The translations under genes were made by a program, and so were the position numbers. The notes below the pieces were generated by a model. The model saw only the letters and a list, made by a program, of their open reading frames with translations, did no database searches and was not told the origin of the DNA. From Escherichia coli (GTDB lineage: Bacteria; Pseudomonadota; Gammaproteobacteria; Enterobacterales; Enterobacteriaceae), in NCBI RefSeq assembly GCF_046105845.1, contig NZ_CP151004.1: 64,000 nucleotides of DNA; one strand, given 5' to 3'. Each line of letters opens with the position of its first letter. Positions within the stretch are counted from its first letter, which is position 1. Positions 7,655 to 40,569 of the stretch are shown here, piece after piece.

Positions 7655-9646
7655 ATGTCCTCACGTAAAGAGCTTGCCAATGCTATTCGTGCGCTGAGCA
7701 TGGACGCAGTACAGAAAGCCAAATCCGGTCACCCGGGTGCCCCTATGGGGATGGCTGACATTGCCGAAGTCCTGTGGCGTGATTTCCTGAAACACAACCC
7801 GCAGAATCCGTCCTGGGCTGACCGTGACCGCTTCGTGCTGTCCAACGGCCACGGCTCCATGCTGATCTACAGCCTGCTGCACCTCACCGGTTACGATCTG
7901 CCGATGGAAGAACTGAAAAACTTCCGTCAGCTGCATTCCAAAACGCCGGGCCACCCGGAAGTGGGCTACACCGCAGGTGTGGAAACCACTACTGGTCCGC
8001 TGGGTCAGGGTATTGCCAACGCAGTCGGTATGGCGATTGCAGAAAAAACGCTGGCGGCGCAGTTTAACCGTCCGGGCCACGACATTGTCGACCACTACAC
8101 CTACGCCTTCATGGGTGACGGCTGCATGATGGAAGGCATCTCCCACGAAGTTTGCTCTCTGGCGGGTACGCTGAAGCTGGGTAAACTGATTGCGTTCTAC
8201 GATGACAACGGTATCTCTATCGATGGTCACGTTGAAGGCTGGTTCACCGACGACACCGCAATGCGTTTCGAAGCTTACGGCTGGCACGTTATTCGCGGCA
8301 TCGACGGTCATGACGCGGCATCCATCAAACGCGCAGTAGAAGAAGCGCGCGCAGTGACTGACAAACCGTCCCTGCTGATGTGCAAAACCATTATCGGTTT
8401 CGGTTCACCGAACAAAGCCGGTACGCACGACTCCCACGGTGCGCCGCTGGGCGACGCTGAAATCGCCCTGACCCGCGAACAGCTGGGCTGGAAATATGCA
8501 CCGTTCGAAATCCCGTCTGAAATCTATGCTCAGTGGGATGCGAAAGAAGCAGGCCAGGCGAAAGAATCCGCATGGAACGAGAAATTCGCTGCTTACGCGA
8601 AAGCTTATCCGCAGGAAGCCGCTGAATTTACCCGCCGTATGAAAGGCGAAATGCCGTCTGACTTCGACGCCAAAGCGAAAGAGTTCATCGCTAAACTGCA
8701 GGCTAATCCGGCGAAAATCGCCAGCCGTAAAGCGTCTCAGAATGCGATTGAAGCGTTCGGTCCGCTGTTGCCGGAATTCCTCGGCGGCTCTGCTGACCTG
8801 GCACCGTCTAACCTGACCCTGTGGTCTGGTTCTAAAGCAATTAACGAAGATGCTGCGGGTAACTACATCCACTACGGTGTTCGCGAGTTCGGTATGACCG
8901 CGATTGCTAACGGTATCTCCCTGCACGGTGGTTTCCTGCCGTACACCTCCACCTTCCTGATGTTCGTGGAATACGCACGTAACGCCGTACGTATGGCTGC
9001 GCTGATGAAACAGCGTCAGGTGATGGTTTACACCCACGACTCCATCGGTCTGGGCGAAGATGGCCCGACTCACCAGCCGGTTGAGCAGGTCGCTTCACTG
9101 CGCGTGACCCCGAACATGTCCACATGGCGTCCGTGTGACCAGGTTGAATCCGCGGTCGCGTGGAAATACGGCGTTGAGCGTCAAGACGGCCCGACTGCGC
9201 TTATCCTCTCCCGTCAGAACCTGGCGCAGCAGGAGCGTACTGAAGAGCAGCTGGCAAACATCGCGCGCGGTGGTTATGTGCTGAAAGACTGTGCCGGTCA
9301 GCCGGAACTGATTTTCATCGCGACCGGTTCTGAAGTTGAACTGGCGGTTGCTGCCTACGAAAAACTGACTGCCGAAGGCGTGAAGGCGCGCGTGGTTTCC
9401 ATGCCGTCTACCGATGCATTCGACAAGCAGGATGCGGCTTACCGTGAATCCGTACTGCCGAAAGCGGTTACTGCACGCGTTGCGGTAGAAGCGGGTATTG
9501 CTGACTACTGGTACAAGTATGTTGGCCTGAACGGCGCTATCGTCGGCATGACCACCTTTGGTGAATCTGCTCCGGCAGAGCTGCTGTTTGAAGAGTTCGG
9601 TTTCACCGTTGATAACGTTGTTGCGAAAGCCAAAGCGCTGCTGTAA
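7655..9646 (+). CDS. tktA: Transketolase 1
   Basis: ORF 7625..9646 trimmed to [22 protein letters not shown]... at 7655; 663 aa. Confidence 0.97.
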
Positions 9647-9668
9647 TCGGTAAGATGCTTTGTGAGAA

Positions 9669-9692
9669 GGGCCGCGAAAGCGGCCCTTTTTT
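9669..9692 (+). terminator. Intrinsic terminator of tktA
   Basis: gggccgc gaaa gcggccc hairpin followed by tttttt. Confidence 0.8.
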
Positions 9693-10591
9693 ACTTGGTG
9701 GAGATAAACGGAACTGTGCTGCCGGGGATCATGGTATCGGGTAGCTTACCGTCCCAACGCTCTGCAGTGGTTAGGGCAACAAGTCCGGGATTATCCCGCA
9801 GAGCTTCACCGCGCAGGCGGATAGCTTCTGCTTCAGCCGCACTTTTTAAACGAATAGTTTCAGCCTCTGCCGCGCCTCTTACGCGAATAGTCTCAGCTTC
9901 TGCTTTGGCTGCCGCCAGTTTACTGTCTGCTTCAGCCTGGGCCTGAGTTACTGCTATTTGCGCCTGGATTTTCTCTGTTTCCAGATTTTGCTTACGTGTG
10001 GCAATGGCGACTTCTGCTTTCATTCGATCTTCAATCGATTTTTCATAAGCGTCAGAAAAATCAATATTTTCAATCTGGACACCATCAATCACCACCGGGC
10101 CAACAACGGCTTTACGCATTGCATTTTGCAGATCCTGAACCAGTTTTGTACGATCCTGTACCGCGCTGATGGCGGTATATTGGCCGAAAACGTTCTCCAG
10201 TTGAGTTGGCAGCTGGCGGACGATCAGACGCTCTTTTAAAGATTCAATGGTGTTGTAGGTTGTATAAACTGCGCCAGCTTCTGAAGGTTTAATGTGGAAG
10301 CTGACTGATACTGTCATTTGTGCCGGTTGCTGGTCGCGGCTGTAGGCCCTGATAAACCACAGCCTGATTACGCGTGGAAATTTTCTCCACGCTTTCCATA
10401 AAAGGGATCTTAAAACCCAGACCCGGCTCGGCAACTTTTACGATTTTTCCGTAGCGCAGCAAAATGCCGCGTTCACCTTCATTAACGGTGTAATACGAGA
10501 GAAATGGCAGCACAACCACGGCAAGCACGCCAATGACGATAGCAATAGATTTTTGTGGGCGAAATGAGGTTATTGAAACAGGTGCTTTCAT
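9691..10591 (-). pseudogene. SPFH/band-7 (stomatin/prohibitin/HflC-like) membrane protein gene with disrupted reading frame
   Basis: N-terminal part (ORF 10289..10627; real start likely MKAPVSITSF at 10591 with SD aaggaag) and C-terminal part (ORF 9691..10434) are offset by one frame; junction near 10342-10354. N-terminal TM helix; C-terminal AEAETIR coiled-coil repeats and ...ERWDGKLP motif. Confidence 0.6.
9815..9905. repeat. Three imperfect ~27-nt tandem repeats inside the SPFH coding sequence
   Basis: Units like gcggatagcttctgcttcagccgc / acgaatagtttcagcctctgccgcgcc / acgcgaatagtctcagcttctgc encode AEAETIR(V/L)... repeats on the minus strand. Confidence 0.6.
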
Positions 10592-10627
10592 ATGAATCTT
10601 CCTTGAGTAAAGTGGGGAATATGTCAC

Positions 10628-10967
10628 ATGAGGTGAGGAGAAAATAGCCGACAGGTGAGAATTCAGAATCTATAAAGGGGTATAGCGAAAAAACATTGCA
10701 TTAAAAAAGTATGTTTTCGGACATTCAATAAATAAATGGCGATATGCATCACAAATACAACAACAATCAAAATGTTGATTTTGTGACAAACATAACAAAT
10801 ACAAAATTGACTTTAAAAATATCAATTTCATGTTGTTGTTATTTAAAGTTTTATTATTTTTGTTCATGGGGTTTTTCTTCTCGCGTACCCAATTGCTTTC
10901 ATTAAACCGCACGAGTATTTTATTTTTACCGCCGGACGGTACCCTAAAAATAAAATAAGGATAATTT
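10628..10967. promoter_or_regulatory. Very AT-rich intergenic region carrying the divergent promoters of the SPFH gene and cmtBA
   Basis: About 340 bp with long A/T tracts and short repeats (caaatacaa twice); a partial CRP-like tgtgacaaacataaca motif. Confidence 0.4.
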
Positions 10968-11411
10968 ATGCGGCTTAGTGATTATTTTCCAGAGTCATCA
11001 ATCTCAGTTATACATTCAGCAAAAGATTGGCAGGAAGCTATTGATTTCTCGATGGCATCATTGCTGGATAAAAACTATATCAGCGAGAATTACATTCAGG
11101 CAATTAAAGATTCCACCATTAACAATGGCCCTTATTATATTCTCGCACCAGGTGTGGCAATGCCTCATGCGCGACCGGAATGTGGGGCGCTTAAAACCGG
11201 GATGTCTTTGACGTTACTTAAACAAGGCGTTTATTTTCCGGGGAATGACGAACCGATTAAATTACTCATCGGGCTTTCTGCTGCCGATGCCGATTCGCAC
11301 ATTGGCGCTATTCAGGCGTTAAGTGAATTACTAAGCGAAGAAGAAATACTCGAACAACTCTTAACAGCATCATCAGAAAAACAATTAGCGGACATTATCA
11401 GCCGCGGATAA
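10968..11411 (+). CDS. cmtB: PTS mannitol-type enzyme IIA component (cryptic)
   Basis: 147-aa ORF with PTS EIIA(Mtl/Fru) fold features (...APGVAMPHARPE...); AT-rich gene. Confidence 0.9.
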   Translation: MRLSDYFPESSISVIHSAKDWQEAIDFSMASLLDKNYISENYIQAIKDSTINNGPYYILAPGVAMPHARPECGALKTGMSLTLLKQGVYFPGNDEPIKLLIGLSAADADSHIGAIQALSELLSEEEILEQLLTASSEKQLADIISRG

Positions 11412-11438
11412 TTACTCTCTCCTCTACAGGATAATATT

Positions 11439-12827
11439 ATGGAAAACAAGTCTGCTCGTGCAAAGGTCCAAGCTTTTGGGGGTTTTTTGACGGCAATGGT
11501 CATCCCCAATATCGGTGCTTTTATTGCCTGGGGCTTTATAACTGCGTTATTTATTCCCACCGGTTGGCTGCCGAATGAACATTTCGCCAAAATTGTCGGC
11601 CCGATGATTACCTATTTATTGCCCGTGATGATTGGTTCTACTGGTGGTCATCTGATCGGCGGCAAACGCGGCGCGGTCATGGGCGGAATAGGTACTATTG
11701 GTGTGATCGTCGGCGCAGAGATCCCGATGTTCCTTGGCTCAATGATCATGGGACCGCTCGGTGGGCTGGTCATAAAATATGTCGATAAGGCACTGGAAAA
11801 ACGCATACCTGCCGGTTTTGAGATGGTTATCAATAACTTCTCATTAGGTATCGCGGGGATGCTCCTTTGTCTGCTGGGTTTTGAAGTGATCGGCCCTGCG
11901 GTGTTAATTGCCAATACTTTCGTCAAAGAGTGTATTGAGGCGCTGGTACATGCGGGTTATCTGCCTTTGCTGTCAGTCATCAATGAACCGGCGAAAGTGC
12001 TTTTCCTTAATAATGCGATCGATCAGGGCGTCTATTATCCGCTGGGAATGCAACAGGCATCAGTTAACGGCAAATCCATCTTCTTTATGGTGGCCTCTAA
12101 CCCAGGTCCGGGCCTGGGGCTGCTGCTGGCGTTTACCTTGTTTGGTAAAGGGATGAGTAAACGTTCTGCGCCAGGGGCGATGATTATTCACTTCCTCGGT
12201 GGGATCCACGAACTGTATTTCCCATATGTGCTGATGAAGCCGCTGACCATTATTGCCATGATTGCGGGCGGTATGTCTGGCACCTGGATGTTTAACTTAC
12301 TGGACGGTGGTCTGGTGGCTGGCCCAAGTCCGGGGTCTATCTTTGCTTACCTGGCACTGACGCCGAAAGGCTCGTTCCTGGCGACAATTGCCGGTGTTAC
12401 GGTAGGTACCCTGGTGTCCTTTGCTATCACTTCGCTGATACTGAAGATGGAAAAAACGGTGGAAACGGAGAGCGAAGATGAGTTTGCTCAGTCAGCCAAT
12501 GCGGTTAAGGCGATGAAACAAGAGGGTGCATTCTCGTTAAGCCGGGTTAAGCGTATCGCCTTTGTTTGCGATGCGGGGATGGGCTCCAGCGCGATGGGCG
12601 CAACCACCTTCCGTAAACGTCTGGAAAAAGCGGGGCTGGCAATTGAAGTAAAACATTACGCGATAGAAAACGTGCCTGCGGATGCGGATATCGTTGTTAC
12701 TCATGCCAGTCTGGAAGGGCGCGTGAAACGTGTGACGGATAAACCGCTGATACTGATTAATAACTATATTGGCGATCCAAAACTCGACACTTTATTTAAT
12801 CAATTAACCGCCGAACATAAAAACTGA
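11439..12827 (+). CDS. cmtA: PTS mannitol-type enzyme IICB component (cryptic)
   Basis: 462-aa polytopic membrane protein with C-terminal EIIB domain (CDAGMGSS). Confidence 0.92.
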   Translation: MENKSARAKVQAFGGFLTAMVIPNIGAFIAWGFITALFIPTGWLPNEHFAKIVGPMITYLLPVMIGSTGGHLIGGKRGAVMGGIGTIGVIVGAEIPMFLGSMIMGPLGGLVIKYVDKALEKRIPAGFEMVINNFSLGIAGMLLCLLGFEVIGPAVLIANTFVKECIEALVHAGYLPLLSVINEPAKVLFLNNAIDQGVYYPLGMQQASVNGKSIFFMVASNPGPGLGLLLAFTLFGKGMSKRSAPGAMIIHFLGGIHELYFPYVLMKPLTIIAMIAGGMSGTWMFNLLDGGLVAGPSPGSIFAYLALTPKGSFLATIAGVTVGTLVSFAITSLILKMEKTVETESEDEFAQSANAVKAMKQEGAFSLSRVKRIAFVCDAGMGSSAMGATTFRKRLEKAGLAIEVKHYAIENVPADADIVVTHASLEGRVKRVTDKPLILINNYIGDPKLDTLFNQLTAEHKN

Positions 12828-12841
12828 TTGCCGAGGTAAAA

Positions 12842-14119
12842 ATGAAAACCAAAGTTGCTGCTATTTATGGCAAGCGGGATGTCCGTCTGCGCGAATTTGA
12901 ACTGCCAGAAATTACCGATAATGAACTGTTAGTGAGTGTGATTTCTGACAGCGTCTGTTTATCGACCTGGAAAGCGGCGTTACTCGGTAGTGAACATAAA
13001 CGCGTACCCGACGATTTAGAAAATCATCCGGTCATTACCGGGCATGAATGTGCCGGGGTTATTGTTGAAGTGGGTAAAAATCTCACCGACAAATATAAAA
13101 AAGGCCAGCGTTTTGTATTGCAACCGGCGATGGGGTTACCAAGCGGATATTCAGCGGGCTACAGCTACGAATATTTTGGCGGTAACGCCACCTATATGAT
13201 TATTCCCGAAATCGCCATTAATTTGGGCTGCGTATTACCGTATCACGGCTCTTATTTTGCTGCGGCGTCGCTGGCAGAGCCTATGTGCTGCATTATTGGC
13301 GCTTATCATGCCAATTATCACACCACGCAATATGTTTATGAGCATCGCATGGGCGTTAAACCTGGCGGCAGTATTGCGCTGCTGGCATGTGCTGGTCCGA
13401 TGGGCATTGGCGCTATCGATTATGCTATTAACGGCGGCATACAACCGTCGCGGGTGGTGGTGGTCGATATCGACGACAAACGCCTGGCGCAGGTACAAAA
13501 GCTGCTGCCGGTGGAACTGGCGGCCAGTAAAGGCATTGAGCTGGTGTATATGAATACCAAAGGGATGAGCGATCCGGTCCAGACGCTGCGGGCGCTGACG
13601 GATGATGCCGGATTTGATGACGTATTTGTCTATGCAGCGGTGCCTTCAGTCGTCGAGATGGCTGATGAATTACTGGCGGAAGATGGCTGCCTGAACTTCT
13701 TTGCCGGGCCGACGGATAAAAACTTCAAAGTGCCGTTTAATTTCTACAACGTCCATTACAACAGCACGCATGTCGTCGGTACGTCCGGCGGTTCAACGGA
13801 CGACATGAAAGAGGCGATTGCGCTTAGCGCCACAGGGCAGTTGCAGCCGTCGTTTATGGTGACCCATATCGGTGGGCTGGATGCGGTGCCTGATACCGTG
13901 CTCAATCTGCCGGATATCCCCGGCGGTAAAAAACTCATTTATAACGGTGTGACCATGCCGCTCACTGCCATTGCCGATTTTGCCGAAAAAGGCAAAACCG
14001 ATCCGCTGTTTAAAGAGCTGGCGCGGCTGGTTGAGGAAACGCACGGCATCTGGAATGAGCAGGCCGAGAAATATCTGCTGGCGCAATTTGGCGTTGATAT
14101 CGGGGAGGCCGCGCAATGA
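12842..14119 (+). CDS. yggP: Zn-dependent polyol/alcohol dehydrogenase-like protein
   Basis: 425-aa ORF recognised as YggP (MDR superfamily). Confidence 0.88.
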   Translation: MKTKVAAIYGKRDVRLREFELPEITDNELLVSVISDSVCLSTWKAALLGSEHKRVPDDLENHPVITGHECAGVIVEVGKNLTDKYKKGQRFVLQPAMGLPSGYSAGYSYEYFGGNATYMIIPEIAINLGCVLPYHGSYFAAASLAEPMCCIIGAYHANYHTTQYVYEHRMGVKPGGSIALLACAGPMGIGAIDYAINGGIQPSRVVVVDIDDKRLAQVQKLLPVELAASKGIELVYMNTKGMSDPVQTLRALTDDAGFDDVFVYAAVPSVVEMADELLAEDGCLNFFAGPTDKNFKVPFNFYNVHYNSTHVVGTSGGSTDDMKEAIALSATGQLQPSFMVTHIGGLDAVPDTVLNLPDIPGGKKLIYNGVTMPLTAIADFAEKGKTDPLFKELARLVEETHGIWNEQAEKYLLAQFGVDIGEAAQ

Positions 14120-15081
14120 TGTCCCTGGCGTGGCCATTATTTCGCGTTACGGAACAGGCAGCGTTGGCTGCCTGGCCGCAAACCGGATGTGGCGACAAAA
14201 ATAAAATTGATGGCCTGGCGGTCACCGCGATGCGCCAGGCATTAAACGACGTCGCTTTTCGTGGGCGAGTGGTTATCGGCGAGGGAGAGATTGACCATGC
14301 GCCGATGCTGTGGATTGGCGAAGAGGTGGGCAAAGGCGATGGGCCAGAAGTCGATATCGCGGTTGATCCCATTGAAGGTACGCGGATGGTGGCGATGGGG
14401 CAGAGCAATGCGCTGGCGGTCATGGCTTTCGCCCCTCGAGATAGCCTGTTACACGCGCCCGATATGTATATGAAAAAACTGGTTGTTAATCGGCTGGCGG
14501 CGGGCGCGATTGATCTGTCCATGCCTCTGGCGGACAACTTGCGCAACGTGGCGAAAGCGTTAGGCAAACCGCTGGACAAGCTGCGTATGGTTACGCTGGA
14601 TAAACCGCGCCTGAGTGCCGCAATTGAGGAAGCAACACAGCTGGGCGTGAAGGTTTTTGCCCTGCCGGATGGCGATGTCGCCGCCAGCGTGCTGACCTGC
14701 TGGCAGGATAATCCTTACGATGTGATGTACACCATCGGCGGTGCGCCAGAAGGCGTGATTTCTGCCTGTGCCGTTAAAGCATTAGGCGGGGATATGCAGG
14801 CCGAGCTGATTGACTTTTGTCAGGCTAAAGGGGATTACACGGAAAATCGGCAGATTGCAGAGCAGGAGCGCAAGCGTTGCAAGGCAATGGGCGTTGACGT
14901 TAACCGTGTGTACTCGCTCGATGAACTGGTGAGGGGGAACGATATCCTCTTTAGTGCTACGGGCGTGACGGGCGGCGAGTTGGTGAACGGTATCCAACAG
15001 ACGGCGAATGGGGTGCGGACGCAGACATTACTGATCGGCGGCGCGGACCAAACGTGTAATATAATAGACTCCCTGCATTGA
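14116..15081 (+). CDS. yggF: Class II (GlpX-like) fructose-1,6-bisphosphatase
   Basis: 321-aa ORF with GlpX-family sequence; start overlaps the yggP stop (ATGA). Confidence 0.9.
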   Translation: MMSLAWPLFRVTEQAALAAWPQTGCGDKNKIDGLAVTAMRQALNDVAFRGRVVIGEGEIDHAPMLWIGEEVGKGDGPEVDIAVDPIEGTRMVAMGQSNALAVMAFAPRDSLLHAPDMYMKKLVVNRLAAGAIDLSMPLADNLRNVAKALGKPLDKLRMVTLDKPRLSAAIEEATQLGVKVFALPDGDVAASVLTCWQDNPYDVMYTIGGAPEGVISACAVKALGGDMQAELIDFCQAKGDYTENRQIAEQERKRCKAMGVDVNRVYSLDELVRGNDILFSATGVTGGELVNGIQQTANGVRTQTLLIGGADQTCNIIDSLH

Positions 15082-15102
15082 TGGTGATCTATCGGAAGAC
15101 CA

Positions 15103-15612
15103 ATGGCGACGCTGACAGAAGATGATGTGCTTGAGCAACTGGATGCACAGGACAATTTATTTTCATTTATGAAAACTGCGCATTCTATTTTGCTCCAGGG
15201 GATACGCCAGTTTCTGCCGTCGCTGTTTGTCGATAATGATGAAGAGATCGTCGAATATGCAGTGAAGCCGTTACTCGCCCAAAGCGGCCCGCTTGACGAT
15301 ATTGATGTTGCACTGCGTTTGATTTATGCGCTGGGAAAAATGGATAAATGGCTGTACGCCGATATCACCCATTTTTCCCAGTTCTGGCATTACCTGAACG
15401 AACAGGATGAAACGCCCGGATTTGCCGATGACATGACCTGGGATTTTATCAGCAACGTCAATAGCATAACCCGCAATGCGACTCTCTATGACGCGTTGAA
15501 AGCGATGAAGTTCGCCGATTTCGCCGTCTGGTCAGAGGCGCGTTTTAGCGGGATGGTCAAAACGGCGCTGACGCTGGCAGTAACGACAACCTTAAAGGAA
15601 TTAACGCCGTGA
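15103..15612 (+). CDS. yggD: MtlR-family protein YggD (reported as fumarase E)
   Basis: 169-aa ORF MATLTEDDVLEQLDAQDNLFSFMKTAHSILLQG... Confidence 0.88.
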   Translation: MATLTEDDVLEQLDAQDNLFSFMKTAHSILLQGIRQFLPSLFVDNDEEIVEYAVKPLLAQSGPLDDIDVALRLIYALGKMDKWLYADITHFSQFWHYLNEQDETPGFADDMTWDFISNVNSITRNATLYDALKAMKFADFAVWSEARFSGMVKTALTLAVTTTLKELTP

Positions 15613-16322
15613 AAATCGAACTGACGGTGAATGGACTAAAGGTACAGGCGCAGTACTCTGATGATGAAATTGAGAATGTTCATAAACCGCTACTGCGTAT
15701 GCTGGCGGCCTTACAGACGGTAAATCCGCAGCGGCGTACGGTGGTTTTTCTTTGCGCTCCGCCGGGGACGGGTAAATCTACCCTAACCACCTTCTGGGAA
15801 TATCTCGCGCAACAAGACCCGGAACTACCCGCTATTCAGACACTCCCGATGGATGGTTTTCACCATTACAATAGCTGGCTGGATGCGCATCAATTGCGCC
15901 CCTTCAAAGGCGCACCAGAGACATTTGACGTTGCGAAACTGGCGGAAAATCTGCGCCAGGTCGTGGAAGGGGATTGTACGTGGCCGCAGTACGATCGACA
16001 AAAGCATGATCCTGTTGAAGATGCGTTGCACGTTACCGCACCACTCGTCATCGTCGAAGGAAACTGGCTATTACTGGATGATGAAAAGTGGCAGGAGTTG
16101 GCATCTTTCTGCGATTTTTCTATTTTTATTCATGCACCTGCTCAAATTCTGCGGGAGCGCTTGATTAGTCGTAAAATTGCGGGAGGATTATCGCGGCAAG
16201 AAGCCGAAGCTTTTTATGCCCGAACCGATGGTCCCAATGTCGAGCGTGTGCTGGTGAATAGTCGTCAGGCCAATCTGATATTAGAGATGACCGAAGAAGG
16301 CAGATATCACTTCAAAAGCTGA
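15609..16322 (+). CDS. yggC: P-loop nucleoside/pantothenate-kinase-like protein
   Basis: 237-aa ORF with Walker A motif APPGTGKST; start overlaps the yggD stop. Confidence 0.88.
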   Translation: MKIELTVNGLKVQAQYSDDEIENVHKPLLRMLAALQTVNPQRRTVVFLCAPPGTGKSTLTTFWEYLAQQDPELPAIQTLPMDGFHHYNSWLDAHQLRPFKGAPETFDVAKLAENLRQVVEGDCTWPQYDRQKHDPVEDALHVTAPLVIVEGNWLLLDDEKWQELASFCDFSIFIHAPAQILRERLISRKIAGGLSRQEAEAFYARTDGPNVERVLVNSRQANLILEMTEEGRYHFKS

Positions 16323-29280: not shown

Positions 29281-29483
29281 TATTTGCTCCGTAAAACGCA
29301 ATCAAAATGAGGGTATTTGCGCCTACGGTGAGCTTTTTACGTGGGTTTGTCGCCAGCAAAAAAAATGCATTCAGACGTCGTTTTTTGCCGCCTGAGATTT
29401 GTCTATTTTGTGATGTGATTCAAGGAATACAAAAAGAAGTGAGGATAACGCCTGATATGTGCTATCAGGCATTATTTGATGGA

Positions 29484-30377
29484 TTAATCCTGACGAAGGA
29501 CTTTGTGACCATAATCGAGCAACGCATCAGTGACTTTACGCATCATGCGGCTTTCAGGAGCAAAGCGGTGCCAGTAGAGCATCCGGCGTTGAAATAGCCC
29601 TGGCGTTAAGTCAATCAGTTCACCGCTGGCCAGTTCTTTCTCGATTTGCAGGTGCGGGATCATACAGCAGGTGGTGCCCTGGCGAGCAAGTTGCACGAAC
29701 GCTTCTGAAGAATTAACGATATGGCACGGTACGCTGCCTGGGGGCAGATCGAAGTTTTGCTGCAAAAAGGCCTGGTGCATATCGTCAAGATGGTCAAAGG
29801 CGACCACAGGTGCTTTCAATAATGCCGAACGCGTTACGCCGTTAGGGAAATATTTTTCGGCAAACGGTTTTGAGCTGACGAACAGATAGTCAAGCGCACC
29901 GAGCTTATCGACAAGACAACTCGGCAGCGCCTGATGTTGAATACTCACCGCGCCGACCACTTCGCCGCGGCGCAGACGTTCCTGAGTGCGGGTTTCATCT
30001 TCTACCTGCAAGTTGAGGCGGATAGGCGAATCAGCCAACACAGGAGCCAGCGCCGGAAGCAACCACGTCGCCAGACTGTCAGCGTTGACCGCCAGTGAAA
30101 GCAGCAGCGGAGTTGAACCGGTTTGTTCATCGCCCAGCCACTCTTCTTCCAGTAACTCCACCTGGCGCAGCAGTGCCAGCAGTTTTTGCCCTTGTTCTGT
30201 CGGGCGCGGTGGTACGGTACGCACCAACAGTGGCTGCCCGAACATATTTTCCAGTTGCTTAATGCGCTGTGAGACGGCTGATTGTGTAATGCACAGCTTT
30301 TGTGCCGCGCGCTCAAATCCTCGTTCACGTATCACCGCATCCAGTGCCTGTAATGTTCTGTAGTCCGGGCGTTTCAT
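29484..30377 (-). CDS. argP: LysR-family regulator ArgP (IciA)
   Basis: ORF 29484..30443 trimmed to [43 protein letters not shown] at 30377; 297 aa. Confidence 0.95.
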
Positions 30378-37824: not shown

Positions 37825-39027
37825 ATGCAAAGTGTTGATGTAGCCATTGTTGGCGGCGGCATGGTGGGGCTGGCGGTTGCCTGTGGCTTACAGGGGAGCG
37901 GCTTACGCGTTGCCGTACTGGAGCAGCGCGTACCGGAACCTCTGGCGGCGAATGCACCACCACAACTGCGCGTTTCGGCTATCAATGCCGCCAGCGAAAA
38001 ATTACTCACCCGTCTTGGCGTCTGGCAGGACATTCTCTCTCGTAGGGCCAGCTGTTATCACGGTATGGAAGTGTGGGACAAAGACAGCTTTGGTCACATT
38101 TCGTTTGACGATCAAAGCATGGGCTATAGCCATCTTGGGCATATCGTTGAAAATTCAGTGATTCACTACGCGCTGTGGAACAAAGCGCATCAGTCGTCAG
38201 ATATCACTCTGTTAGCCCCCGCAGAATTACAGCAGGTCGCCTGGGGAGAAAATGAAACCTTCCTGACGCTGAAAGACGGCAGTATGTTAACGGCGCGTCT
38301 GGTGATTGGCGCGGACGGCGCTAATTCCTGGTTGCGCAACAAAGCCGATATTCCGCTGACCTTCTGGGATTATCAGCATCACGCGCTGGTAGCGACCATT
38401 CGCACTGAAGAACCGCATGATGCGGTGGCGCGGCAGGTTTTCCATGGCGAAGGCATTCTGGCCTTTTTACCGCTTAGCGATCCGCATCTTTGCTCGATTG
38501 TCTGGTCACTGTCGCCAGAGGAAGCGCAGCGGATGCAGCAGGCAGGTGAAGACGAATTTAATCGCGCGTTAAATATCGCTTTTGATAATCGCCTGGGCTT
38601 ATGCAAGGTTGAGAGCGAGCGTCAGGTGTTCCCGCTGACGGGGCGTTATGCCCGCCAGTTTGCCGCACACCGTCTGGCGTTGGTGGGCGACGCCGCGCAT
38701 ACTATTCACCCGCTCGCGGGGCAGGGCGTTAATCTCGGCTTTATGGATGCCGCAGAGCTGATTGCCGAACTGAAACGGTTGCATCGTCAGGGTAAAGACA
38801 TCGGGCAGTACATTTACCTGCGTCGCTATGAGCGTAGCCGTAAGCACAGTGCGGCGCTGATGCTGGCTGGTATGCAGGGATTTCGCGATCTGTTTTCCGG
38901 TACCAATCCGGCGAAAAAACTGCTGCGTGATATTGGTCTGAAACTGGCCGACACGCTTCCTGGCGTTAAACCACAACTTATCCGCCAGGCAATGGGATTA
39001 AACGATTTGCCTGAATGGCTGCGTTAA
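37825..39027 (+). CDS. ubiI: 2-octaprenylphenol hydroxylase (VisC/UbiI, FAD monooxygenase)
   Basis: 400-aa ORF MQSVDVAIVGGGMVGLAVACGLQGSGLRVAVLEQ... Confidence 0.95.
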   Translation: MQSVDVAIVGGGMVGLAVACGLQGSGLRVAVLEQRVPEPLAANAPPQLRVSAINAASEKLLTRLGVWQDILSRRASCYHGMEVWDKDSFGHISFDDQSMGYSHLGHIVENSVIHYALWNKAHQSSDITLLAPAELQQVAWGENETFLTLKDGSMLTARLVIGADGANSWLRNKADIPLTFWDYQHHALVATIRTEEPHDAVARQVFHGEGILAFLPLSDPHLCSIVWSLSPEEAQRMQQAGEDEFNRALNIAFDNRLGLCKVESERQVFPLTGRYARQFAAHRLALVGDAAHTIHPLAGQGVNLGFMDAAELIAELKRLHRQGKDIGQYIYLRRYERSRKHSAALMLAGMQGFRDLFSGTNPAKKLLRDIGLKLADTLPGVKPQLIRQAMGLNDLPEWLR

Positions 39028-39474
39028 AAATTTCTCATCTGTTGTTTATTTGATACCCATCACACTTTCATCTCCCGGTTTTTTCGCCGGGAGATTTTCC
39101 TCATTTGAAATAAACTAATTTCACCTCCGTTTTCGCATTATATTTTCTAATGTCATGATTTTTTGATTTAGTGTTTTTTGACAATTTTTTAGTTCTTAAT
39201 ATTGCATTAATCAAATTAACTTTCTCATCTGTTTATCTTTATATAGAGATTTGTTCATTTTTTGGTTTTTTATTCTGTTGTGATTTTGGCGTTTTTTAAC
39301 CATAAGCTAATGTGATGATCAATTTTACCTTATGGTTAACAGTCTGTTTCGGTGGTAAGTTCAGGCAAAAGAGAACGATTGCGTTGGGGACCGGGAGTGG
39401 CTCCGATGCTGGGTTTCGTGGTGATAATTTCGCCATGGAAAAGTTGTCAGCCCCGCTTATTCAATGAGGACAAG
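39028..39474. promoter_or_regulatory. Long AT-rich regulatory region upstream of the gcvTHP operon
   Basis: 447-bp non-coding stretch with multiple A/T tracts; the gcv operon is known to be controlled by GcvA/GcvR, Lrp, PurR and CRP. Individual sites not mapped here. Confidence 0.5.
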
Positions 39475-40569
39475 ATGGCACAACAGACTCCTTTGTACGA
39501 ACAACATACGCTTTGCGGCGCTCGCATGGTGGATTTCCACGGCTGGATGATGCCGCTGCATTACGGTTCGCAAATCGACGAACATCATGCGGTACGTACC
39601 GATGCCGGAATGTTTGATGTGTCACATATGACCATCGTCGATCTTCGCGGCAGCCGCACTCGGGAGTTTCTGCGTTATCTGCTGGCGAACGATGTGGCGA
39701 AACTCACCAAAAGCGGCAAAGCCCTTTACTCGGGGATGTTGAATGCCTCTGGCGGTGTGATAGATGACCTCATCGTCTACTACTTTACTGAAGATTTCTT
39801 CCGCCTCGTTGTTAACTCCGCCACCCGCGAAAAAGACCTCTCCTGGATTACCCAACACGCTGAACCTTTCGGCATCGAAATTACCGTTCGTGATGACCTT
39901 TCCATGATCGCCGTACAAGGGCCGAATGCGCAGGCAAAAGCTGCCACACTGTTTAATGACGCCCAGCGTCAGGCGGTGGAAGGGATGAAACCGTTCTTTG
40001 GCGTGCAGGCGGGCGATCTGTTTATTGCCACCACTGGTTATACCGGTGAAGCGGGCTATGAAATTGCGCTGCCCAATGAAAAAGCGGCCGATTTCTGGCG
40101 TGCGCTGGTGGAAGCGGGCGTTAAGCCATGCGGCCTGGGCGCGCGTGACACGCTGCGTCTGGAAGCGGGTATGAATCTTTATAGTCAGGAGATGGACGAA
40201 ACCATCTCTCCTTTAGCCGCCAATATGGGCTGGACTATCGCCTGGGAACCGGCAGATCGTGACTTCATCGGTCGTGAAGCCCTGGAAGTGCAGCGTGAGC
40301 ATGGCACAGAAAAACTGGTTGGTCTGGTGATGACCGAAAAAGGCGTGCTGCGTAATGAACTGCCGGTACGTTTTACCGATGCGCAGGGCAACCAGCATGA
40401 AGGCATTATCACCAGCGGGACTTTCTCCCCGACGCTGGGTTACAGCATTGCGCTGGCGCGCGTGCCGGAAGGTATTGGTGAAACAGCGATTGTGCAAATT
40501 CGCAACCGTGAAATGCCGGTTAAAGTGACGAAACCTGTTTTTGTGCGTAACGGTAAAGCCGTCGCGTGA
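39475..40569 (+). CDS. gcvT: Glycine cleavage system T protein (aminomethyltransferase)
   Basis: ORF 39352..40569 trimmed to [39 protein letters not shown] at 39475 with SD tgagga; 364 aa. Confidence 0.96.

Follow-up and report, generated by a model that had tools for sequence, protein, structure and literature searches.

A probable conserved promoter-operator with two CRP-like sites 44 bp apart upstream of the cmtBA-yggPFDC operon of Escherichia coli

The AT-rich DNA that precedes the cmtBA-yggPFDC operon was analysed in a stretch of 64,000 nucleotides from Escherichia coli (contig NZ_CP151004.1; the whole stretch is called the window in what follows), and its organization can be compared with that of several described control systems. 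The bgl operon is a cryptic sugar operon which is silenced by H-NS and needs activating mutations for its expression. At the CytR promoters (deoP2, cdd, udp and nupG) the CRP sites lie about 50-53 bp apart and the CytR octamers are found between them. In the mannitol operon mtlADR the regulator MtlR, which has no DNA-binding domain, acts as a repressor by forming a bridge between two CRP dimers on the DNA (Lee et al., Nucleic Acids Res., July 2026, PMC13421365). The docking of MtlR needs adjacent CRP sites separated by 43-46 bp, with an optimum at 44-45 bp and with any spacer sequence (PMC13421365). Moreover, the MtlR substitutions R167E and L178A are reported to abolish docking on CRP-DNA, and for enterobacterial MtlR an angle of about 138 degrees between the C-terminal helices is given (PMC13421365).

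The best explanation for the AT-rich region, to which we assign a probability of about 60%, is that it is an old and vertically conserved promoter-operator of cmtBA-yggPFDC, that a pair of CRP sites 44 bp apart forms its core, and that a gene of the SPFH family was inserted on its far side. The features concerned are the following.

10592..10967, no strand: the true intergenic region between the SPFH pseudogene (minus strand) and cmtB (plus strand), 376 bp, 31.4% G+C
10738..10753, no strand: CRP-like site 1, GGCGATATGCATCACA, 12.9 bits, centred 222 bp upstream of the cmtB ATG
10754..10781, no strand: spacer between the CRP-like sites, 28 bp, of invariant length across genera
10782..10797, no strand: CRP-like site 2, TGTGACAAACATAACA, 14.1 bits, centred 178 bp upstream of the ATG
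10968..16322, plus strand: the regulated operon cmtBA-yggPFDC

Both sites were scored with a CRP weight matrix made from 99 sites of a chromatin immunoprecipitation sequencing (ChIP-seq) study of enterotoxigenic E. coli (ETEC) H10407, the training sites having a median of 12.8 bits. Site 2 is the third best and site 1 the fourth best CRP match in the window, and a score of 12 bits was reached in 1.25% of shuffled intergenic regions. The first-pass annotation, which was made from the letters of the window, had mentioned short internal repeats; these are real and non-random, and they proved to be the half-sites of the two CRP-like sites, both as a 14-nt direct repeat (CATCACAAATACAA and CATAACAAATACAA, with 44-bp spacing) and as a TCACA...TGTGA inverted repeat. 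In nearly all loci the sites are centred at these same distances of 222 and 178 bp from the ATG. With at least 10 bits demanded of both members, this is the only pair separated by 20-120 bp in the 64 kb, and lowering the threshold to 8 bits adds a single pair, 95 bp apart.

Of 43 distinct upstream regions, 41 have their best distal and best proximal CRP-like sites exactly 44 bp apart from centre to centre; since the loci are homologous, these are not 41 independent events. The spacing is 44 bp in all 35 regions in which both sites have 7 bits or more. In shuffled sequences the probability of this spacing is 0.02 per locus. The 28-bp spacer has suffered no insertion or deletion in any lineage, while its identity to other genera is 0.43; for as long as the operon has existed in Enterobacterales, the 44-bp spacing has been kept and the sequence of the spacer has drifted freely. 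Further loci, which were fetched through homologues of YggD and not of CmtB and are therefore out of sample, gave the following spacings.

Providencia: 44 bp
Serratia: 45 bp
Yersinia, with three sites: 44 and 45 bp
Budviciaceae: 45 bp
Buttiauxella: 44 bp

As a positive control the same matrix recovers the five sites of the mtl operator with spacings of 43, 44, 73 and 44 bp, as published. The 44 bp of the window falls within the 43-46 bp of an MtlR-type operator, and the fixed length of a spacer of free sequence is likewise what such an operator shows. In Yersinia intermedia three CRP-like sites stand in a row, like CRP1-3 of the mtl operator, and a weaker third site is found 42 bp upstream of site 1 in Lelliottia, Enterobacter, Huaxiibacter, Superficieibacter and Budviciaceae.

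By position, site 1 is the homologue of the K-12-type site CGTGTTGTAGATCACA, which has been assigned to CRP by ChIP-seq (FAT 16, among the highest of the table) and by genomic SELEX (systematic evolution of ligands by exponential enrichment). For this K-12-type allele the literature has shown that CRP with cyclic AMP (cAMP) binds and activates transcription. The activity of a cmtB promoter fusion drops in a crp mutant, and a fusion of PcmtA to green fluorescent protein (GFP) is controlled by CRP and induced about 6-fold by uridine. In addition, deletion of cmtA raises the minimum inhibitory concentration of tobramycin in two K-12 backgrounds. Because of the ChIP-seq and SELEX assignments, the reporters and the deletion phenotype, the region has to be regarded as an active CRP-dependent promoter and not as a silent one, and the earlier description of the operon as silenced and cryptic does not hold for the K-12 allele. 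The control of cmtB by CRP is thus already published; new here are site 2, the conservation of the geometry and the connection with YggD.

Among 198 carbon sources, nucleosides were the strongest inducers of the PcmtA-GFP fusion (uridine, followed by inosine, guanosine, cytidine and adenosine), and the authors of that work name no regulator for this response. Tandem CRP sites are a hallmark of CytR promoters, and a nucleoprotein promoter of this type, from which nucleosides release CytR, would explain the induction of PcmtA by uridine and cytidine. Conserved motifs similar to TGCAA or TTGC are indeed present at cmt, with GCAA upstream of site 1 and TTGC downstream of site 2, and many Citrobacter loci have TTTGCAAT inside site 2. 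However, these conserved GCAA and TTGC motifs are placed outside the CRP pair and not within it, and in the 28-bp spacer no conserved motif, and no conserved CytR octamer, was seen when it was compared by eye with the CytR motif. Moreover, the cmt sites are 44 bp apart as against about 50-53 bp at the known CytR promoters, and nucleosides, being carbon sources too, simply raise cAMP. We therefore hold a CytR-type promoter to be distinctly unlikely, the resemblance being limited to the tandem sites and the nucleoside-responsive expression. The GCAA (10726-10729) and TTGC (10807-10810) positions stand on either side of the CRP pair in a nearly symmetrical arrangement, each about 18-19 bp beyond the centre of the nearest site. 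A further motif, GTTGCTTTTT, is the consensus downstream of site 2 in other genera and can be seen again between CRP3 and CRP4 of the E. coli mtlA operator.

In the conserved promoter-operator proposed above, the 44-bp CRP pair would act as a docking platform for a protein of the MtlR family, which could be the YggD protein encoded by the operon itself, MtlR, or both. The genes of the operon are these.

10968-11411, plus strand: cmtB, enzyme IIA (EIIA)
11439-12827, plus strand: cmtA, EIIC-IIB
12842-14119, plus strand: yggP
14116-15081, plus strand: yggF
15103-15612, plus strand: yggD, MtlR family, full length with 169 residues
15609-16322, plus strand: yggC

All six genes occur in this order in Yersinia and Providencia, and in Serratia, Budviciaceae and Buttiauxella the order is the same apart from one uncalled gene each. 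YggD, the structure of which has been solved (3C8G), matches the Pfam family MtlR (PF05068) over its full length (E = 6e-53). Its residues R147 and L158 align with R167 and L178 of MtlR, and these two columns are among the 28 that are invariant in MtlR and 14 diverse YggD orthologues. The operon consequently has a cognate MtlR-family protein which keeps the residues for CRP contact. The CmtA protein carries a PTS_IIB domain (PTS, phosphotransferase system), and by analogy with mtl this domain would sequester the regulator and so relieve repression. Because of the 44-bp geometry, the docking residues of YggD and the IIB domain of CmtA, we infer a second operator of the MtlR type. Accepting the analogy, the cmt operon may tentatively be proposed as the second natural target of CRP-anchored repression, in which YggD, alone or with MtlR, would be a repressor lacking a DNA-binding domain and would be released by the IIB domain of CmtA; we give this extension somewhat less than an even chance.

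The two systems are similar in many respects. Both mtlADR and cmt are paralogous PTS operons of the mannitol EII family, each with its own MtlR-family gene, and both have adjacent CRP sites 43-45 bp apart, unconserved spacers and CRP-dependent activation. The equivalents of R167 and L178 in the regulator and an EII with a IIB domain are also common to them. On the other hand cmt has two CRP sites (three in Yersinia) whereas mtl has five, the cmt region has 31% G+C whereas that of mtl has 42.5%, and the positions of the CRP sites relative to the promoter are probably not alike. Furthermore, YggD lacks 26 N-terminal residues in comparison with MtlR. Its gene goes under the name fumE (fumarase E) in K-12 RefSeq, and in other genera it is described as 'MltR family transcriptional regulator'.

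If this extension is true, YggD gains a regulatory function, and the long-standing 'cryptic' label of cmtBA would be explained despite a strong promoter that is a target of CRP. The repression that reads the geometry of CRP-anchored sites would then be a property of a small family of operators and not a single case, and the published claim that the mtl operator is the only such geometry in E. coli would be overturned. The matter is also relevant to the recent observation that the expression of cmtA affects aminoglycoside uptake.

Between the CRP pair and cmtB the following elements were found.

10807..10834, plus strand: distal promoter-like element TTGACT-16-CATGTT, 7.5 bits
10893..10928, plus strand: proximal promoter-like element with -35 TTGCTT (10893-10898), 17 bp, -10 TATTTT (10916-10921) and a predicted start at about A10928
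10957..10970, plus strand: Shine-Dalgarno sequence AAGGA (10957-10961) and cmtB start codon (10968-10970)

The built-in promoter scan gave nothing inside the intergenic region owing to its threshold and was replaced by a position-weight scan of all orthologues. Promoter prediction had been suggested as a check in the first-pass annotation, and it yields a conserved sigma-70-like element, TTGCTT-17-TATTTT, at 10893-10921. No sigma-70-like arrangement other than this one, in the form TTG(C/A)TT-17-TATTTT, keeps its place in nearly all loci. Serratia, Providencia and Budviciaceae have it too, and E. coli alleles with only 41% identity elsewhere agree in it completely (100%). Within the window the distal element outscores the proximal one. 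Its TTG (10807-10809) and A10830 are conserved in the whole family, and a good -35 is found in Escherichia only. Downstream of the CRP pair the promoter-operator would consist of an invariant sigma-70-like promoter followed by a short A-rich leader.

In Superficieibacter the CRP pair is 11 bp closer to the proximal promoter, and in Providencia 12 bp closer, a difference of about one helical turn. Because this distance changes only by about one turn, the alignments hint at a constraint on the face of the helix (helical phase) between the pair and the promoter. On the minus strand a promoter-like element was noticed as a sequence match at 10964-10936 (-35 TTATCC, 17 bp, -10 TACCGT, 6.1 bits). 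Its -35 is the complement of the Shine-Dalgarno region of cmtB, and transcription from it would give an antisense RNA to the cmtB leader, reminiscent of MtlS at mtlA of Vibrio cholerae.

Several observations weigh against the promoter-operator and the regulatory role of YggD as proposed here, besides the common descent of the 43 loci mentioned above. Neither promoter puts the predicted CRP sites at a textbook position, as they would be near -138 and -182 from the proximal start (about 10928) and near -51 and -95 from the distal start (about 10841). As to the start of transcription itself, cmtB and the K-12 coordinates gave no match in the supplement text of Cappable-seq and SMRT-Cappable-seq. 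The published ChIP-seq and SELEX tables of CRP give one cmtB site, which is site 1, and site 2 is a prediction absent from those tables. Moreover, the in vivo evidence for CRP belongs to the K-12-type allele and not to the allele of the window, each of the two sites differing between them at 6 of 16 positions. In the allele of the E. coli type strain (ATCC 11775) site 1 is kept and site 2 has decayed to TGTAGTTTACTTAACA, which has 4.0 bits and is still 44 bp away; given this decay, regulation may differ between E. coli lineages. Site 2 is weak in a few genera as well. The mtl operator has been called the sole one with 43-46 bp spacing among 331 CRP-regulated units (PMC13421365), and cmt and YggD are not mentioned by Lee et al. 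2026 (PMC13421365). A survey of listed CRP sites would nevertheless miss the cmt pair, because the tables list one cmtB site. Finally, given the fumE annotation and the fumarase activity reported for it, YggD may function as an enzyme and not in regulation.

The 80 bp before cmtB are conserved, and it was considered whether they act at the level of RNA, be it as an AU-rich hairpin (10916-10957), a long-range helix occluding the ribosome-binding site and the start codon, a leader peptide or an antisense small RNA like MtlS. The features that gave rise to this idea are listed here.

10916-10928 and 10945-10957, no strand: perfect 13-nt inverted repeat, TATTTTATTTTTA and TAAAAATAAAATA, with a 16-nt centre
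10670..10912, minus strand: the 80-residue open reading frame (ORF) of the first-pass annotation, spurious

The inverted repeat is longer than any found in 300 shuffles (maximum 11) and is thus beyond chance. In the minimum-free-energy fold 10898-10910 pair with the start-codon region (10969-10981), and when the structures are combined 78% of the cells are paired as against 54% at most in slid controls, with a covariation score that was reached by 2 of 500 shuffles. In addition, several genera have an open plus-strand frame that stops 10 nt ahead of the ATG. However, RNAalifold gives no consensus structure, explicit pair counting finds no compensatory (two-sided) changes in the AU stem, and the folds have modest z-scores (-0.9 and -1.4). 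Shuffling does not make the loop sequences fold any worse (mean z = -0.23, with 15 of 27 above 0).

The left arm of the repeat comprises the proximal -10 and the start site, and the right arm enters the Shine-Dalgarno sequence. The sequence of the left arm does not vary, not even in the Lelliottia group and Providencia with their truncated or missing right arm. This fits a -10 element better than a stem, and transcription starting near 10928 would leave the left arm untranscribed. The repeat is therefore probably not an RNA hairpin, and a hairpin or riboswitch-like leader was rejected in favour of a -10 element with an A-rich leader. For a long-range helix between 10898-10910 and the start-codon region the support is weak. 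As for peptides, neither the start nor the sequence of the 42-residue upstream ORF is conserved, and many genera lack this ORF; it looks like an open frame over conserved AT-rich DNA. No match to Rfam was obtained at E<=1 over 9000-12000, and altogether a function of these 80 bp as RNA or leader peptide is very unlikely.

The first-pass annotation had taken its 80-residue ORF for spurious, and rightly so: it is intact in the window and in the near-identical relative VCSW5 only, the other four SPFH-carrying loci of Escherichia have it in broken form, and Pfam gave no match to it. The small RNA or regulatory peptide which had been left open there finds no counterpart in an Rfam match, a conserved structure or a conserved ORF. 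The listed E. coli records have no annotated feature in this intergenic region.

The region was originally described as a strongly AT-rich island between divergent genes, and this is borne out, the intergenic region having 31.4% G+C (30.6% over 10628-10967) as against 51.5% in the whole window and 56.4% in the flanking tkt gene, so that the G+C comparison suggested at that time comes out clearly. Windows of 340 bp with equally low G+C make up 0.23% of all those in the 64 kb, and there are only three islands of comparably low G+C. Of the borders first given (10628-10967) the right one stands. The left one has to be moved to 10592, since the start codon of the SPFH gene is an ATG with its A at 10591 and the GTG at 10627 merely lengthens a mechanical ORF. 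The A/T tracts were also confirmed (15 runs of at least four A or T, and seven runs of 9-14 nt made only of A and T). As regards the flanking genes, which had been called AT-rich as well, this is true of cmtB (42.6% G+C) but not of the SPFH gene (48.6%), cmtA (49.9%) and tkt (56.4%). A match to the core of an IHF site, AATCAAAATGTTG (10765-10777), was spotted by eye and rejected as a chance occurrence in AT-rich DNA, as it is unconserved in other alleles.

From this composition it had been concluded that the island is xenogeneic DNA, acquired horizontally and silenced by H-NS so that cmtBA is kept cryptic. The contrast of 31% with 51.5% G+C agrees with this conclusion, and cmtB itself has 40-45% G+C in all hosts examined. 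Moreover, Higashi et al. 2016 count cmtBA-yggPFDC among the transcription units bound by H-NS, their flag standing for binding in at least one of K-12, SE11 and SE15 and giving no position within the unit. The intergenic region is hypervariable in E. coli, with alleles that are 94-100% identical, about 80% identical or unalignable, as would fit the thesis of Higashi et al. that H-NS-bound DNA diversifies faster. Full-text literature searches gave no further report on cmtA or cmtB together with H-NS.

The age of the locus argues against recent import. A CmtB scan with one genome per species returned 32 loci, and the synteny of tkt with cmtBA, together with the AT-rich upstream region (302-347 bp, 29-39% G+C), was found in at least 10 genera of Enterobacteriaceae, among them Escherichia, Citrobacter, Salmonella, Raoultella, Lelliottia, Silvania, Superficieibacter, Huaxiibacter and Enterobacter. 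In the genera just named other than Escherichia, including Salmonella arizonae and diarizonae, cmtBA comes directly after tkt, and in these genera the tkt gene that adjoins the AT-rich region has 55-62% G+C. A pattern scan of metagenomes gave 120 stretches, 12 of them with cmtB, and added little diversity. In five further lineages the operon is placed in unrelated genomic contexts and its upstream region still has 27-34% G+C. Because the value stays at about 27-39% across hosts and contexts, whatever the composition of the host, the low G+C is a property of the control region itself and not a sign of recent import. An ancient transfer of the whole operon as a unit between families is nevertheless likely, as the contexts differ outside Enterobacteriaceae and one such locus adjoins a transposase. 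The only recent arrival at the locus is the SPFH gene, which has 48.6% G+C.

The AT-rich region also contains functional motifs of conserved position, and a 10-11 bp periodicity of AA/TT or phasing of A-tracts, as a mark of intrinsic curvature, is absent in the 43 orthologous regions. Together with the activity and CRP dependence of the K-12 promoter and the phenotype of the cmtA deletion, this makes silenced foreign DNA unlikely as the principal explanation and at best a secondary aspect. Occupancy by H-NS remains plausible in view of the Higashi flag, unlike silencing. In the promoter-operator proposed here H-NS would probably coat the AT-rich DNA too, as a secondary layer of control.

The comparison with bgl leads in the same direction. 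Both are PTS operons that have long been called cryptic, with an AT-rich regulatory region upstream and an involvement of CRP, and the cmt unit carries the flag for H-NS binding. However, bgl needs activating mutations, whereas PcmtA is active, inducible and CRP-dependent in wild-type K-12. Furthermore, no gene for an antiterminator of the PRD type was identified among the six genes of the cmt operon.

The local gene order in the window is tkt (7655-9646, plus strand), the SPFH/Band 7 gene (minus strand), cmtB, cmtA, yggP, yggF, yggD and yggC. The part of the locus nearest to the SPFH gene is described below.

9691..10591, minus strand: SPFH/Band 7 gene (prohibitin family), here a frameshifted pseudogene
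10592..10712, minus strand: SPFH-proximal part, with the 5' region and Shine-Dalgarno sequence of the SPFH gene, present only in Escherichia loci that carry this gene
10713..10737, no strand: start of the ancestral cmtB upstream region, with the conserved block GTTTTCGGACATTCAAT, from alignments

The SPFH gene has been inactivated by an 8-bp deletion after 10346, the missing bases being CCTGTAAT of strain VCSW5. Its frame is thereby split into ORFs of 112 and 247 residues, while the intact product of VCSW5 and MEI003 has 302. The gene was seen in Escherichia only (E. albertii, E. whittamii, cryptic clades and E. coli), and in E. coli its presence is polymorphic, with 1816 of 5426 complete genomes carrying it. 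It is an insertion specific to Escherichia between tkt and the control region of cmtB, and the sole lineage-specific piece of the locus.

According to the alignment, the ancestral cmtB upstream region extends from about 10713 to 10967, and the segment from 10592 to about 10712 is linked to the SPFH gene. The identity of 10592..10712 to other genera is 0.31, which is the random level, and in loci without the SPFH gene the tkt terminator occupies its place. This segment came in together with the SPFH gene and took the place of the ancestral tkt terminator. No sigma-70-like element of conserved position that could serve as the SPFH promoter was found on the minus strand. The GTTTTCGGACATTCAAT block holds the 'GCAA' motif of the whole family, which is TCAA in the window (10726-10729). 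Strains of K-12 type retain the ancestral enterobacterial tkt terminator. Some strains with the SPFH gene have about 175-570 bp of extra DNA between it and tkt, and in one ETEC strain the insertion sequence IS1 lies under the match.

Within E. coli, strains with the SPFH gene hold alleles of the intergenic region that are 94-100% identical to that of the window, and the allele with about 80% identity is that of the type strain, among others. MEI003 and VCSW5 are examples of strains with the allele of the window. The K-12-type alleles align with the window over the last 78 bp only, where they are 100% identical. Expressed by segments, the window is 98-100% identical to the K-12 type over 10888-10967, whereas over 10798-10887 the identity is 41%, a value similar to the 40% found with other genera. 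The CmtB protein of the window is 98% identical to that of the K-12 type and only 88% identical to that of another E. coli with the SPFH gene. Because the identity to K-12 shifts at about 10886-10890 and the affinities of CmtB differ, the locus seems to be a mosaic with an apparent recombination junction at that point.

The other two islands of comparably low G+C in the window, 177-671 and 38904-39498, also contain top-scoring CRP sites. The first has TGTGAAGCAAATCACA at 340-355, which is the reverse complement of the published CRP site of galP. The second has TTTGATACCCATCACA at 39049-39064 and would be the gcvT-ubiI intergenic region, as suggested by the annotation of a related strain. These islands are like that of cmt in their low G+C and top-scoring CRP site but have a single strong site each and no 44-bp pair. 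The three AT-rich islands of the window are all CRP-bound control regions, and genome scans should take into account that low G+C in an intergenic region is not by itself evidence of foreign origin. Elsewhere in the window the CRP-like sites TGTGATGTGATTCAAG and TGTGACCATAATCGAG stand 95 bp apart, at 29409-29424 and 29504-29519, and the pair at 29409-29519 matches the row of the SELEX list of Shimada 2011 that names yqfF, argP and scpA-argK-scpBC.

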